Positions 1 to 5,197 of a stretch of DNA of 5,197 nt are shown piece by piece; position 1 is the stretch's first letter, and every line of letters starts with the position of its first letter. The notes below the pieces were generated by a model, which was not told the origin of the DNA, did no database searches, and worked only from the letters and a program-made list of their open reading frames with translations. Made by a program: the position numbers and the translations under genes. Source of the DNA: a virus. Taxonomy: Duplodnaviria; Heunggongvirae; Uroviricota; Caudoviricetes. The stretch lies in IMG/VR virus record IMGVR_UViG_2671180433_000002; one strand, 5' to 3'.

Positions 1-78
1 ATATTCGCCCTGACTTTCCAGAACCATACGGACTGCCCGTTGACGGACTTCAGGGGAAAAACGAGTATTTTTAGTCAT
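1..78 (-). CDS. IS629-like transposase OrfA, 5' portion only (26 codons; continues past window edge)
   Basis: Minus-strand ATG at 76-78, preceded by AGGA-containing AAACAGGATG context. Translation MTKNTRFSPEVRQRAVRMVLESQGEY is a typical IS3-family OrfA HTH N-terminus. Confidence 0.75.
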   Translation of the reverse strand, partial: MTKNTRFSPEVRQRAVRMVLESQGEY

Positions 79-132
79 CCTGTTTACCTCTTTCTCAGGA
101 AGTTTAGTCTCCAGGATTCCCGGGGCGGTTCA
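1..132 (-). mobile_element. IS629-like (IS3 family) insertion sequence, terminal fragment; left inverted repeat abuts 132 and the element continues beyond the window start
   Basis: Bases 1-132 are the exact reverse complement of 5066-5197. The terminal sequence TGAACCGCCCCGGGAATCC reads on the minus strand and ends at 132. The minus-strand ATG at 76-78 opens an ORF translating MTKNTRFSPEVRQRAVRMVLESQGEY, which I recognise as the N-terminus of IS629-type OrfA. Confidence 0.8.
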
Positions 133-671
133 TTGAGGAAAAACACTTCTTCAAACTTGAAGGTGAAACTTTACGTGAGTTCAAGCACAGAGTAGCTTTT
201 AACTACTCTGTGAAAATTGCCCGTAACGTTCGCTCCCTCATCCTCTGGACAGAACGAGGCGCAGCCCGTCACGCCAAAATGCTAGAAACCGATCAGGCGT
301 GGGATGTGTTCGAAAAACTGGAAGACTGCTATTTCAGCCAGTGCGAGAAAAATACTGGCAAACAAGAGAAGAAGCCCAACGGGCTTTCCGCAAAAGAAAC
401 AGACAGCCTTGTATGGCTGTGGGATTATGCCAACCGCTCACAGGCATTGTTCCGTGAGTTGTATCCCGCATTAAAACTGATTCAGTCTGGCTATTCCGGC
501 ATATGCCACGACTACGGCTATGAGTTCTCGTATATCATCGGGAGGGCGAGGGGCGTTTTAATTAATCACACGCGGGATATAGATATTTATGAGCCTGACG
601 GGCCGACGAACCTTCTGGCATGGGAAAGGCTTAAGAACAAAGAGTTGCCGCCTTCACTGCATCGCTACTGA
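133..671 (+). pseudogene. 5'-truncated phage regulatory protein (Rha/antirepressor-like N-domain remnant plus unassigned C-terminal domain); residual ORF annotated from GTG 210
   Basis: The frame of ORF 210-671 stays open upstream to the IS boundary at 133 ([32 protein letters not shown]...) with no ATG and no Shine-Dalgarno before GTG 210. The segment [28 protein letters not shown] resembles the C-terminal end of the Rha-type domain of the downstream antirepressor (LSPEFTARLVDRWRELE). Stop TGA at 669-671. Confidence 0.45.
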
Positions 672-687
672 CAATTGACAACTTAAC

Positions 688-714
688 AAACCCAGCTTCG
701 GCTGGGTTTTTTAT
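688..714 (+). terminator. Rho-independent terminator after the truncated gene
   Basis: Stem CCCAGC (691-696) pairs with GCTGGG (701-706) around loop TTCG, extended by AAA/TTT, followed by a T-run at 707-712. Confidence 0.7.
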
Positions 715-739
715 TGCTGAATTTTCAATATGAGAGGAC

Positions 740-1468
740 ATGACAATGAATGAGCTGATAAATAGCAGCATCATCAAAATGACCAGCATTGAAATCGCTG
801 AGTTGGTGGGGAGTCGTCCAGATAACGTAAAAATATCAATAGAGCGCCTGGCTGAATCTGGAGTTATTCAACTTCCTGCATTGCAGGTTTTCGAAAAAAT
901 CAATAACTTAGGACTGCGCCGTAGTGTCGAGGCTTACGTCTTCGAAGGCGAACAAGGTAAGCGAGACAGCATTATTGTCGTCGCCCAATTGTCGCCGGAA
1001 TTCACCGCTCGTCTTGTTGACCGTTGGCGAGAGCTTGAAGGGGCAACCGCGAAAATACCACAAACCTTTTCTGAGGCATTGCGCCTTGCGGCCGACCTTG
1101 AAGACCAGAAGGCTGAACTGGAGAAACAGCTTGCTCTCGCAGCACCTAAAGTTGAGTTTGCCGATCGAGTTGGCGAGGCCAGCGGAATTTTGATTGGAAA
1201 CTTTGCAAAGGTTGTTGGTATTGGTCCAAACAAACTGTTTGCGTGGATGCGCGATCACAAAATCCTTATTGCTTCAGGTTCCCGGCGCAATGTGCCAATG
1301 CAGGAATATATGGATCGCGGCTATTTCACAGTGAAAGAAACAGCGGTCAATACAAATCACGGAATACAGATCTCGTTCACCACAAAAATCACCGGGCGTG
1401 GTCAACAGTGGCTGACCAGAAAGCCGCTCGATAACGGAATGCTGAAAGTAACAGGGGAGGCTGCTTAA
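740..1468 (+). CDS. Phage antirepressor, N-terminal Rha-like domain plus C-terminal KilAC (ANT) domain
   Basis: 242 aa ORF. The N-terminus (SIEIAELVGSRPDNVKISIERL) has a Rha-like HTH. The C-terminal half (PKVEFADRVGEASGILIGNFAKVVGIGPNKLFAWMRDHKILI...YMDRGYFTVKE...TTKITGRGQQWL) matches the KilAC antirepressor domain pattern. GAGG at 734-737; ATG 746 is an alternative start with better spacing. Stop TAA overlaps the next start (TAATG). Confidence 0.8.
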   Translation: MTMNELINSSIIKMTSIEIAELVGSRPDNVKISIERLAESGVIQLPALQVFEKINNLGLRRSVEAYVFEGEQGKRDSIIVVAQLSPEFTARLVDRWRELEGATAKIPQTFSEALRLAADLEDQKAELEKQLALAAPKVEFADRVGEASGILIGNFAKVVGIGPNKLFAWMRDHKILIASGSRRNVPMQEYMDRGYFTVKETAVNTNHGIQISFTTKITGRGQQWLTRKPLDNGMLKVTGEAA

Positions 1469-1758
1469 TGGCTAACCTACGCAAAGAAGCGCGCGGCAGA
1501 GAATGCCAGGTACGGATTTACGGCGTATGCAATGGCAATCCTGAAACGACAGTTCTGGCACATTACCGGATGGCTGGAATTTGCGGAACGGGAATGAAGC
1601 CTGACGACCTGATCGGTGCATGGGCTTGTAGTGACTGCCACGCGGAGATCGACCGACGCACCCGAATTCTCGACAACAACGACGCCAGACTTTACCACCT
1701 GGAAGGCGTGATCAGGACGCAGGCGATATTGCTGAAGGAGGGGAAGATTAAGTCATGA
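1468..1758 (+). CDS. ybcO: YbcO-like DUF1364 protein (putative zinc-binding nuclease of lambdoid nin regions)
   Basis: 96 aa; MANLRKEARGRECQVRIYGVCNGNPETTVLAH...CSDCHAEIDRRT...RTQAILLKEGKIKS closely resembles the DLP12 YbcO sequence as I recall it, with four Cys in two pairs. GGGGAGG Shine-Dalgarno at 1453-1459. Lies immediately upstream of rusA as in DLP12. Confidence 0.85.
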   Translation: MANLRKEARGRECQVRIYGVCNGNPETTVLAHYRMAGICGTGMKPDDLIGAWACSDCHAEIDRRTRILDNNDARLYHLEGVIRTQAILLKEGKIKS

Positions 1759-2117
1759 ATGAATATGAGTTTGTGCTTCCCTGGCCGCCGACGGTGAATA
1801 CCTACTGGCGAAGACGGGGAAGCCAGTACTACATCAGCGATAAAGGCCAGAAATACCGAAAAGACGTACAGCAAATCATCCGGCAACTCAGATTAGACAT
1901 TTTCACTAAATCACGACTTCGCATCACAATTATTGCTGAACCACCAGATTCCCGCCGTCGCGACCTCGATAACATCCTGAAAGGTTTACTCGACTCTCTT
2001 ATCCACGCCGGATTTGCGGAAGACGACGAGCAATTCGATGACATTCGCGTAATTCGCGGCGTGAAAGTGCCTGGCGGTAGAGTGGGGATAAAAATCACCG
2101 AACTGGAGAACATTTGA
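1755..2117 (+). CDS. rusA: Crossover junction endodeoxyribonuclease RusA (Holliday junction resolvase)
   Basis: 120 aa; EFVLPWPPTVNTYWRRRG...RRRDLDNILKGLLDSLIHAGF..DDEQ..DIRVIRGVKVPGGRVGIKITE parallels E. coli RusA motifs (LPWPPS.N.YYR, RRRDLDN). ATG overlaps the ybcO stop (ATGA). Confidence 0.9.
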   Translation: MNEYEFVLPWPPTVNTYWRRRGSQYYISDKGQKYRKDVQQIIRQLRLDIFTKSRLRITIIAEPPDSRRRDLDNILKGLLDSLIHAGFAEDDEQFDDIRVIRGVKVPGGRVGIKITELENI

Positions 2118-2311
2118 TGAATGCTAAAATTCAAACGATACCTGAATTACTGATCTGCACCAGGGGAAATCAGACAGAAGTCGCCAGAATACTGAACTGC
2201 AATCGTGCTACAGTCAGAAAATACATTGATGATAAAGATGCGAAAAAGCACGCCGTCGTCAATGGCGTCCTTATGGTTCATCGCGGATGGGGTAAAGATA
2301 CTGATGCGTGA
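2117..2311 (+). CDS. ninH: NinH-like small DNA-binding protein
   Basis: [58 protein letters not shown] closely parallels lambda NinH as I recall it (..[50 protein letters not shown]). ATG 2117 overlaps the rusA stop (TGATG) with GGAG at 2105-2108; the ORF track's 2114 start is an in-frame TTG. Confidence 0.8.
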
Positions 2312-2738
2312 TATCCGGCAGGTTCTTGAGCGCTGGGGGGCATGGGCGGTAAATAACTATGAGGATGTTACATGGTCGCCCATTGCTGCCGGATTTAAGG
2401 GACTGATCCCCGAAAAAGTAAAATCACGTCCACAGTGCTGTGACGATGATGCGATGGTGATATGCGGGTGCATAGCCCGCCTTTACCGGAACAATCGCGA
2501 TCTGCATGACTTGCTGGTTGATTACTACGTGTTGGGGGAGACGTTCATGGCGCTGGCACGGAAACATGGGTGCTCTGACACCTGTATAGGTAAACGCCTT
2601 CACAAAGCGGAGGGGATTGTTGAAGGCATGCTGATGATGCTGGGAGTGAGGCTTGAGATGGATCGGTATGTTGAGCGTGAATTGCCGGGAGGGAGAAGCT
2701 CTGTATTTTATCAGCGAAAAAATAGTTTACGATCGTAA
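2304..2738 (+). CDS. Q: Late-gene antiterminator Q, Q82/QuuD-type
   Basis: From ATG 2304: [34 protein letters not shown]...[20 protein letters not shown]...[11 protein letters not shown] matches the N-terminus and Cys-rich zinc motif of QuuD-family Q proteins as I recall them. The start overlaps the ninH stop. The upstream in-frame extension from 2205 overlaps ninH and is not supported. Confidence 0.85.
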
Positions 2739-2753
2739 AAATCTGCATATCAT
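2726..2753 (+). promoter_or_regulatory. Candidate late promoter pR' (-35 TTTACG 2726-2731, -10 TATCAT 2748-2753, 16 bp spacer), overlapping the 3' end of Q
   Basis: Hexamers read directly from the sequence, in the position expected for pR' immediately after Q in lambdoid phages. The match to consensus is modest and the spacer short. Confidence 0.3.
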
Positions 2754-2784
2754 GATAAGAGTGGTTACATTGCCACGCAGCCGA

Positions 2785-2808
2785 ACCCGCCGATGCGCGG
2801 GTTTTTTT
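2785..2808 (+). terminator. Rho-independent terminator, candidate tR' (target of Q antitermination)
   Basis: Stem ACCCGC (2785-2790) pairs with GCGGGT (2797-2802) around loop CGATGC, followed by a seven-T run (2802-2808), about 50 bp after the candidate pR'. Confidence 0.7.
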
Positions 2809-2988
2809 GTACCCAGAATCCTGTGAGCTATACGGAAAGTACACAGAAAGGAAGGTACGACCGCAATTAATAACAAAATCTTAAAAATCTCATATGGCAC
2901 TATTAGTTTTCTAAATATTGTATATTTTAAGTATTGCAGGATAACCCTGTAACGAAGTTTGCGTAACAGCATTTTGCTCTACGAGTTT

Positions 2989-3018
2989 GCCAGCCTCCCC
3001 TGGTGGCTGGCTTTTTTT
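2989..3018 (+). terminator. Rho-independent terminator
   Basis: Stem GCCAGCC (2989-2995) pairs with GGCTGGC (3005-3011) around a 9 nt loop, followed by seven Ts (3012-3018). Confidence 0.65.
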
Positions 3019-3252
3019 GTATCCGTTCAACGGGAATGTTACATACCTCACAATTAAGTCAGTTGAATGTTGTCTGCCCGGATGAGAATTTGTTAGAAAA
3101 AACTGCATGGTGAATCCCCCTGAGCGGAGGGGCGACTGGTGACGGTATAATCTCTGATTATCAAAACGAGAATGACGCGGGTTTAGTGGCACCGGGCTGA
3201 ACTCACCGGGAGGCACCCGGCACCATGCAATGGCACATAGCGCCACTCTCCA

Positions 3253-3278
3253 GCCCCTCTCCGGAGGGGCTTTCTTAT
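3253..3278 (+). terminator. Terminator-like hairpin with interrupted T tract
   Basis: Stem GCCCCTC (3253-3259) pairs with GAGGGGC (3264-3270) around tetraloop TCCG, followed by TTTCTTAT (3271-3278). Confidence 0.5.
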
Positions 3279-3282
3279 GGAC

Positions 3283-3310
3283 AAAAAAGCCCGCGCTGGG
3301 AGACGCGGGC
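3283..3310 (-). terminator. Minus-strand rho-independent terminator, convergent with the 3253-3278 hairpin
   Basis: Stem GCCCGCG (3289-3295) pairs with CGCGGGC (3304-3310) around an 8 nt loop. It is preceded on the + strand by AAAAAA (3283-3288), which is a U-run after the hairpin for a minus-strand transcript. There is no T-run after it on the + strand. Confidence 0.5.
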
Positions 3311-3503
3311 GGCAAGGAATGAACAATGAAACGTGAAGTAATATTTCAGCTGGCGAATAATACCCCATAGTAATCACTCTGCGCAACTGCGCGACCTTTT
3401 TCGAATTGCGGGCTGTAGTCTCCCTTCTGCCATTGTCCTGTAACTTCCGGACTTCAGCCCGCTCCTTATTTTACTCACAATATTATCCCGGCCGGGAGGA
3501 TTC

Positions 3504-5065
3504 ATGGCATTTAAACACTATGATGTTGTCAGGGCGGCGTCGCCGTCAGACCTTGCGAAACGAATAACTCAAAAACTGAAGGAAGGGTGGCAGCCTTATG
3601 GTAGTGCGCTGATTTCGACAGCTGGTTATGGTGCGGAGTTCATCCAGCCAGTTGTGAGTGAGGGGAGCATCTCATCACCAGAGGAGCCAGGCAACCGTCC
3701 GACGACCTCAGCGCCTTCTGTTGCGCCAGAATATTACTATGTGATCGCGCTTGCTGGTCAGTCCAATGGTATGTCATACGGTGAGGGACTGCCATTACCG
3801 GATACATTCGACAGCCCTGATCCACGTATTAAACAGTTAGCGCGTCGCAGTACGGTGACACCGGGCGGTGCAGCATGCAAATATAACGACATCATTCCGG
3901 CGGACCATTGTCTGCATGATGTGCAGGACATGAGCCGTCTTAACCATCCGAAAGCGGACCTGTCAAAGGGGCAGTACGGAACCGTGGGGCAGGGGCTGCA
4001 TATCGCCAAAAAACTGCTGCCGTTTATACCGGCGAATGCGGGCATTCTGCTGGTTCCGTGCTGTCGTGGTGGTTCAGCGTTCACCACCGGAGCTGATGGC
4101 ACATACAGTGACGCGAGTGGCGCCTCGGAGAATTCAACCCGCTGGGGTGTGGACAAGCCGCTGTATAAGGACCTTATCGGTCGAACAAAAGCGGCACTGG
4201 AGAAGAACCCGAAAAATGTGCTGTTTGCCGTGGTGTGGATGCAGGGGGAATTTGATTTTGGCGGTACGCCGGCAAATCATGCCGCACAGTTTGGTGCGCT
4301 GGTTGATAAATTCCGTGCAGACCTGGCGGATATGGCAGGCCAGTGCGTCGGTGGCTCTGCTGGCGGTGTTCCCTGGATATGCGGGGACACGACGTATTTC
4401 TGGAAGCAGAAGAACGAATCCACGTACCAGACGGTGTACGGCAGCTATAAAAATAAAACGGAAAAGAATATCCATTTCGTACCGTTCATGACCGATGAGA
4501 ACGGGGTGAATGTGCCGACGAACAAACCGGAAGAAGACCCGGACATTCCGGGTATCGGTTATTACGGTTCGAAATGGCGTGACAGCTCAGCCACCTGGAC
4601 GTCACAGGACAGGGCGAGCCATTTCAGTTCATGGGCTCGCCGTGGGATTATTTCCGACCGTCTGGCAACGGCGATTCTGAGCTGCGCGGGTAAGTCTTCT
4701 GCGTTTGTTAATGGTACTGCCGGGGTGGTTGTTCCAGACAGACCGGTTACCACCTCAGAGTCTGTAATTTTTTACGATGCCAAAAAAGCTACAGACAATC
4801 AGCTGAAACCCTATGGCTGGGACGGTGTGTATGGCAGGCGCACACTGGTTGATGACAGCGGCAATAAAGCTCTGCGAATTGAGAAAAATAACAGCGCGAA
4901 ATCCTGGTCAATGTACTGTGATATTGCTGCAGACAAGGCAAAACTTTTACTGGAAAAAGGCGGGGAAATTGCTGTCCGGTTTAAAATCCCCGAAAACGTC
5001 AATCTTGAGACAACCAGAAACAAGTATGCCTTTGGTTTGTACTGGCGAATAGCGGAATGGCCGGG
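3504..5065 (+). pseudogene. nanS-p: NanS-p-like prophage sialate (9-O-acetyl-Neu5Ac) O-acetylesterase, 3'-truncated by IS629 insertion (ORF runs to 5114 using IS-derived codons)
   Basis: N-terminal DUF1737-like segment (MAFKHYDVVRAASPSDLAKRITQKLKEGWQPYG), then an SGNH/SASA esterase block with the catalytic-serine motif (YYVIALAGQSNGMSYGEG). GGGAGGA Shine-Dalgarno at 3494-3500. The IS629 terminal repeat begins at 5066, so the last 16 codons ([15 protein letters not shown], stop at 5112-5114) are read from IS sequence. I recall full-length NanS-p proteins as roughly 600-650 aa, so about 100+ C-terminal residues are missing. Confidence 0.75.
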
Positions 5066-5197
5066 TGAACCGCCCCGGGAATCCTGGAGACTAAACTTCC
5101 TGAGAAAGAGGTAAACAGGATGACTAAAAATACTCGTTTTTCCCCTGAAGTCCGTCAACGGGCAGTCCGTATGGTTCTGGAAAGTCAGGGCGAATAT
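5066..5197 (+). mobile_element. IS629-like (IS3 family) insertion sequence, terminal fragment; left inverted repeat starts at 5066 and the element continues beyond the window end
   Basis: TGAACCGCCCCGGGAATCCTGGAGACTAAACTTCC starts at 5066. Bases 5066-5197 are the exact reverse complement of 1-132. The OrfA start ATG lies at 5120. Confidence 0.8.
5120..5197 (+). CDS. IS629-like transposase OrfA, 5' portion only (26 codons; continues past window edge)
   Basis: ATG at 5120 preceded by GAGG/AGGA; translation MTKNTRFSPEVRQRAVRMVLESQGEY. Confidence 0.75.
   Translation, partial: MTKNTRFSPEVRQRAVRMVLESQGEY

Follow-up and report, generated by a model that had tools for sequence, protein, structure and literature searches.

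Introduction

NanS-p esterases serve pathogenic Escherichia coli in the use of O-acetylated mucin sialic acids, and a strain holds several redundant copies of them. The nanS-p genes are late phage genes and are induced together with stx by mitomycin C (PMC10462455). The proteins of phages 933W (Z1466) and phi24B (vb_24B_21/gp84) follow a DUF1737-SASA-jelly-roll plan, in which the C-terminal part, a lectin-like jelly-roll, is a proposed carbohydrate-binding module whose contribution is an open question (PMC8065619, PMC10462455). The NanS-p alleles of EDL933 and the five alleles of O104:H4 C227-11, all of them full-length, give active esterases (review, PMC8065619). In phi24B, DUF1737 docks gp84 as a hexamer on the capsid hexons, and processing of virion gp84 after release leaves a fragment of ~35 kDa that persists, retains the esterase domain and lacks the jelly-roll; an SSP motif has been proposed for autoprocessing, and both domains, including the jelly-roll, add to the enzymatic activity (bioRxiv 10.64898/2026.04.10.717836).

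Disruption of nanS-p by an insertion sequence has been described before. IS3-family elements (IS629/IS1203) in nanS-p of O157 Stx2a phages give rise to the "CTR3" variant, which has 634 aa instead of 645 aa and occurs in 18 of 59 phages (PMC10462455). An example is ORF C75 of Stx2 phage II (AP005154; sequence 16 of the same study), and for the Stx2 phage II protein the IS element is the sole difference from 933W NanS-p (PMC10462455). Here we analyse a prophage segment in which IS629 has entered nanS-p at another codon and in another orientation, together with a second copy of the element less than 5 kb away.

Results

Gene content of the segment

The window, by which we mean the whole 5,197-nt stretch of DNA that was analysed, corresponds to the short-read draft contig CYAX01000113.1 (GCA_001285865.1, 5,237 nt) less about 20 nt at each end. 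We compared it as a whole with 5,426 complete E. coli genomes and with phage records, and in neither set did its two IS629 junctions turn up. On the plus strand it carries, in order, nin-region and late-control genes of a lambdoid prophage, and it is bounded on both sides by the left end of IS629. The following features were assigned.

1-132, minus strand: second IS629 left end, inverted, which is also the contig-end repeat; the orfA ATG lies at 78-76
133-671, plus strand: 3' remnant of ant (phage antirepressor), cut at codon 49 of 227; residual ORF 210-671 from a GTG at 210, with a P22_AR_C domain
746-1468, plus strand: KilAC-domain antirepressor
1468-1758, plus strand: ybcO/DUF1364
1755-2117, plus strand: rusA
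2117-2311, plus strand: ninH
2304-2738, plus strand: late antiterminator Q, intact (144 aa, identical to WP_001204886.1)
2726-2753, plus strand: pR'-like promoter, a consensus match only
2783-2813, plus strand: tR'-like intrinsic terminator with a T-run, a consensus match only
3077-3282, plus strand: STnc100 sRNA (RF02076), full-length Rfam match, 165 bits against a gathering score of 47
3504-5114, plus strand: truncated nanS-p ORF (536 aa, ~58.6 kDa), from ORF calling
3510-3662, plus strand: DUF1737 domain of truncated nanS-p, residues 3-53 (Pfam PF08410)
3717-4682, plus strand: NanS-type SGNH/SASA catalytic domain, complete, residues 72-393 (3pt5 alignment)
[quoted passage not shown]
5066-5197, plus strand: IS629 left end (IRL side) in sense orientation, 100% identical to annotated IS629; orfA starts at 5120 (MTKNTRFSPEV...)

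Between the two IS ends, the native sequence (133-5065; 4,933 nt) has 0 mismatches to a prophage of the laboratory strain ML35 (NZ_CP025747.1) and 6 to that of NCCP15648. These parent prophages present the same context (ant, KilAC antirepressor, ybcO, rusA, ninH, Q, STnc100, nanS-p) and differ in that DUF1378, DUF826, holin and lysozyme genes follow downstream of nanS-p. Apart from the two genes cut by IS629, all genes of the segment are intact, and no sign of decay, compensation or selection after IS insertion was seen in the native 4,933 nt. The lack of mismatches to ML35, taken together with the intact state of the other genes, indicates that both IS629 insertions are very recent.

Q lies 765 nt upstream of nanS-p, from which it is separated by a non-coding stretch, in a region colinear with that of intact prophages, and it is expected to regulate nanS-p transcription. 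The promoter- and terminator-like signals, Q itself and the ribosome-binding site of nanS-p (Shine-Dalgarno GGGAGGA at 3494-3500, upstream of the start codon) are the same as in those intact prophages. The pR'/tR'-like signals directly after Q occupy a position analogous to that of the annotated signals of Stx2 phage II; in Stx phages a short terminated late transcript is made from this position. STnc100 sits between Q and nanS-p and ends in a terminator-like hairpin (3252-3271); a 2026 preprint relates this sRNA to the PasD sRNAs, which are associated with esterase genes. The interval was considered as a site of stx or tRNA content, and this was rejected: no tRNA was found between Q and nanS-p by ARAGORN, STnc100 was the only Rfam match above threshold, and stx was absent. 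The segment therefore belongs to a non-Stx lambdoid prophage, unlike those of 933W and phi24B, with which it shares the location of the esterase gene in the late region downstream of Q.

On the left side of the window, IS629 cuts the ant gene at codon 49 of 227, so that the nin-region transcription unit is broken upstream of Q. The 153-aa ant fragment also occurs on longer contigs of draft E. coli/Shigella assemblies (L005:1-500, L007), where nanS-p is intact and a different IS629-family insertion lies 33 bp further into ant, in the opposite orientation. The two ant insertions, 33 bp apart, are independent IS hits in one short stretch.

The nanS-p reading frame ends inside IS629

The initial annotation had reported an ORF of 536 codons at 3504-5114 with a terminus derived from IS629, and the ORF was recovered exactly, on the plus strand. 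The element starts at position 5066, the third base of codon 521 of a gene that has 636 codons in its intact allele. In the DNA alignment, native identity runs to ...GGAATGGCCGGGTGA, after which the window continues with IS sequence and the intact allele with GGGTGGTGAAGG...; the native sequence departs exactly at the start of TGAACCGCCCCGGG, the canonical IS629 end, and the lost 3' part of nanS-p begins GGGTGAGGGTGG.... Bases 5066-5111 thus supply the tail of the ORF, with 15 full codons (522-536) encoded by the IS and followed by its stop (5112-5114). Since native and IS DNA share the TGA at 5066-5068, residues G521 and E522 match the native ones by coincidence, and therefore only 14 residues are foreign. 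The origin of the last codons and of the stop in IS629 was thereby borne out, whereas the 16 codons first counted must be reduced to 15 full codons and 14 foreign residues. Altogether, ~114 native residues were lost and 14 foreign residues, which form a basic tail, were gained.

Each of the three frames that enter the IS629 left end meets a stop, after 0, 15 and 8 codons. The stop of the truncated gene precedes the orfA ATG of IS629 by 5 nt (5112-5122), on the same strand and inside the Shine-Dalgarno region of orfA, and late phage transcripts would continue into the transposase gene at this point.

The parent allele could be identified as WP_000874468.1 (636 aa, "SASA family carbohydrate esterase"), which is encoded in E. 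coli O104:H4 C227-11 and in ML35. Residues 1-522 of the 536-aa protein are 100% identical to the 636-aa proteins of C227-11, ML35 and the draft assembly L005, and over the 1,562 native nucleotides of nanS-p there are 0 differences from ML35. Near-identical proteins are WP_000874467.1 of NCCP15648 and YjhS of Shigella dysenteriae Sd197; across the parent-type alleles, residues 1-522 are 100% identical and 0-1 nucleotide differences occur. The gene is uninterrupted, with 636 codons, in the complete genomes of NCCP15648 (L001:7376-9286), ML35 and O104:H4 C227-11. These alleles run on for 114 more residues (GGEGHLSSFF...KAGAAA), which complete the DUF6645/jelly-roll domain, in agreement with the truncation relative to full-length homologues that had been claimed from the window alone. 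None of 8 other short members examined from the 90% protein cluster has an IS-derived tail: in 6 of them the N- or C-terminal cut is of the kind expected at a contig end, P0011 (505 aa) stops at native sequence, and P0013 represents a shorter call at the N-terminus.

Domains retained and lost

The 536-aa protein begins with a DUF1737 domain that scores well above the Pfam gathering score (residues 3-53, E 3.9e-18, 65.5 bits against a cut-off of 24 bits), followed by a SISSP linker motif at residues 55-59. The catalytic domain was likewise detected above the gathering score (SASA, PF03629, E 1.5e-10, 41.6 bits against 24.8), and residues 72-393 match the structure of E. coli NanS/YjhS (PDB 3pt5; chain positions 15-332 of 337, E 2.3e-118). 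The GQSN motif occupies residues 85-88, and the same alignment places the NanS nucleophile Ser at Ser87 (3762-3764) and the catalytic His at His373 (4620-4622). The DUF1737-like N-terminus, the GQSN motif of a NanS-p SGNH esterase and the kinship with the SASA/NanS-p family had all been recognized in the initial annotation, and each of them held. Chromosomal NanS, the 9-O-acetyl-N-acetylneuraminate esterase, aligns over the full length of the catalytic domain with Ser and His conserved; it differs in having neither DUF1737 nor a C-terminal domain and in being a core-genome gene of the nan regulon. Only 4 differences separate residues 1-393 from the NanS-p of Stx2 phage II, the copy that represents the 933W type.

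The C-terminal part has fared differently. Residues 426-520 match positions 10-100 of the 218 of 6yp6, the C-terminal domain of phage NanS-p, and positions 101-218 have no counterpart. In the intact 636-aa allele, Pfam finds DUF6645 at 483-594 with 99.6 bits, whereas in the truncated allele profile positions 1-34 of 119 are left, with 13.7 bits against a cut-off of 27 bits. The C-terminal domain is also distant from that of 933W and phi24B (34 bits to 6yp6), in addition to being truncated. Using the 6yp6 alignment and the residue numbering in PMC10462455, we placed the counterparts of four aromatic residues that are candidates for sugar binding: the first two are kept (Y508 and Y513, which correspond to Y510 and Y515 of phi24B) and the positions of phi24B Y540 and F611 fall past the break. 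The second linker of the truncated allele has no SSP motif. The break at codon 521 is given as 127 residues downstream of the catalytic His (His373).

These alignments confirm that the catalytic part of nanS-p is encoded intact and that just over half of the proposed sugar-binding domain at the C-terminus has been removed, as the first reading of the window had supposed (residues 72-393 complete, 114 residues missing). Of the features by which NanS-p proteins are recognized, the 536-aa protein presents DUF1737, the full catalytic domain and the late-region position downstream of Q, and it has lost the jelly-roll/DUF6645 domain. Judged by the 100% identity of residues 1-522 to the intact allele, from which descent can be traced, it is unambiguously classed as a truncated derivative of the NanS-p family.

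IS629 ends and the reality of the junctions

The two ends of the window, 1-132 and 5066-5197, form a perfect inverted repeat (132 nt, 100%). This 132-nt arm is 100% identical to features annotated as "insertion sequence: IS3 family IS629" in the deposited phage records LC567824.1 and LC567828.1, and 94% identical to IS1203v of Stx2 phage II. Both copies include the canonical end TGAACCGCCCCGGG as well as the start of orfA, of which the first 26 codons only fall within the window and contig, and their transposase genes read outward. ML35 has copies of the same IS629 end elsewhere in its genome; one that is identical over the 132 nt is annotated as an IS3 family transposase with programmed frameshift and flagged as a pseudogene (internal stop).

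The contig stops ~151-153 nt inside IS629 at both ends, the classic break of a short-read assembly at a repeat, and for this reason the wider structure (simple insertions, an inversion or a deletion) is hidden. Such a setting also raises the question of whether the nanS-p/IS629 junction is an assembler chimera that does not exist in the real genome, the more so as the two 80-nt junctions are absent from the 5,426 complete E. coli genomes and the right nanS-p/IS629 junction (40 nt) is absent from the GTDB representative genomes and the JGI metagenomes. Several observations speak against it. Each of the two joins coincides exactly with the canonical first base of the terminal repeat of IS629, with 3-4 nt shared with native DNA, and the three shared nucleotides (TGA) at the nanS-p join are far too few for a k-mer mis-join. 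Moreover, an identical 536-aa protein has been deposited under four accessions (CTT79955.1, CTT80903.1, CTU06176.1 and CTW71041.1, "YjhS [Escherichia coli]") from four draft contigs of 5-10 kb, so that the junction is reproducible. We therefore regard a chimera as hardly conceivable, and both the nanS-p and the ant junctions with IS629 are credible. The two inverted copies, joined by their 132-nt repeat of 100% identity, might instead delimit a composite transposon, with the 4.9-kb ant'-Q-nanS-p' segment as a cargo that is mobile as a unit. Against this, both flanking genes are cut mid-gene, the segment matches an intact prophage in gene order and in sequence (100% identity), and the pattern is that expected from two independent insertions into a resident prophage. 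Among the genomes searched, the IS-bounded unit was found in no other genomic context (5,426 complete E. coli genomes; for the right junction, GTDB and JGI as well), the contig stops short of the outer flanks where a target duplication would lie, and we consider movement as a composite transposon very improbable. The designation of nanS-p as a "cargo" gene is accordingly apt in the sense of an accessory (moron) gene of the phage; evidence for its movement in an IS629-flanked composite transposon was not found.

Discussion

The comparison with CTR3 shows that the IS629 cut of nanS-p is an ordinary event of an already documented kind. In both cases an element of the IS629/IS1203 group lies in the jelly-roll region of nanS-p, the ORF ends inside the IS, and neither DUF1737 nor the catalytic domain is affected. 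The details differ: in the CTR3 protein of Stx2 phage II the IS sits at codon 557 of 645, the opposite IS end is entered and 78 IS-encoded residues bring the product to 634 aa, whereas the window allele is cut at codon 521 of 636 by a left end in sense orientation that adds 14-15 residues. The window allele also belongs to another C-terminal sequence group, resides in a non-Stx prophage and has an IS end that is 94% identical to IS1203v.

In our reading, the prophage is a non-Stx lambdoid one whose nanS-p was interrupted by a recent IS629 insertion at codon 521 of 636, and translation runs 15 codons into the IS629 left end before stopping 5 nt ahead of the orfA start. Transcription would be expected to start from pR' under Q antitermination, as Q, the pR'/tR'-like signals and the ribosome-binding site are intact. 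If transcribed, the gene would give a 58.6-kDa product that probably remains able to cleave O-acetyl groups from free Neu5,9Ac2. This product would lack its carbohydrate-binding module and would carry an unfoldable half-domain, so that lower stability and poorer action on mucin-bound substrates are to be expected. Overall, we put the probability at roughly 0.6 that the 536-aa product would still act as an esterase on small substrates, with its substrate targeting lost and its stability reduced. Residual activity is supported by the autonomy of the catalytic domain, since stand-alone NanS consists of that domain alone and since the ~35-kDa gp84 fragment of phi24B persists without the jelly-roll. 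The parent of the truncated allele is a C227-11 gene and may be one of the five alleles tested from that strain. A search of the accessible literature found activity measurements for no C-terminally truncated NanS-p.

The main rival to an active esterase is an unstable, dead product. A broken beta-sandwich often leads to aggregation or proteolysis of the entire protein, and half a jelly-roll followed by a basic tail of 14 residues could cause misfolding, aggregation or degradation, leaving a pseudogene devoid of esterase activity and possibly silent. The greater part of the C-terminal domain is gone, as reflected in the fall of the DUF6645 score from 99.6 to 13.7 bits and in the unmatched 6yp6 positions 101-218; the counterparts of phi24B Y540 and F611 went with it, leaving Y508 and Y513, and the jelly-roll contributes to activity in phi24B. 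Because its second linker has no SSP motif, the half-domain may also escape clipping. In addition, a second IS629 has inserted in this region of the prophage, and because it breaks the nin-region transcription unit upstream of Q, Q and hence nanS-p may be poorly expressed. Opposed to this are a catalytic domain that is complete and identical to that of the parent allele, the stability of such a domain without a jelly-roll in stand-alone NanS and in the gp84 fragment, and expression signals (promoter- and terminator-like elements, Q and the ribosome-binding site) that are unchanged from intact prophages. On balance, we regard a dead pseudogene as the less likely but still quite possible outcome. 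An elaborate scenario, in which a lectin-less NanS-p keeps the capsid-docking DUF1737 and the esterase, and in which Q-antiterminated transcription and terminating ribosomes feed into IS629 orfA and so couple a burst of transposition to prophage induction, seems to us distinctly unlikely.

Returning to the shortened esterase, the IS629 event looks like neutral or mildly deleterious damage to the prophage and not like an adaptation. The finding carries little weight beyond annotation, and it illustrates that draft contigs ending in IS repeats conceal wider structure. As a further case of IS629 erosion in lambdoid prophages, it presents two insertion sites less than 5 kb apart. For the NanS-p family, a natural allele with the catalytic domain and without the jelly-roll offers a ready construct to probe the role of the C-terminal domain.
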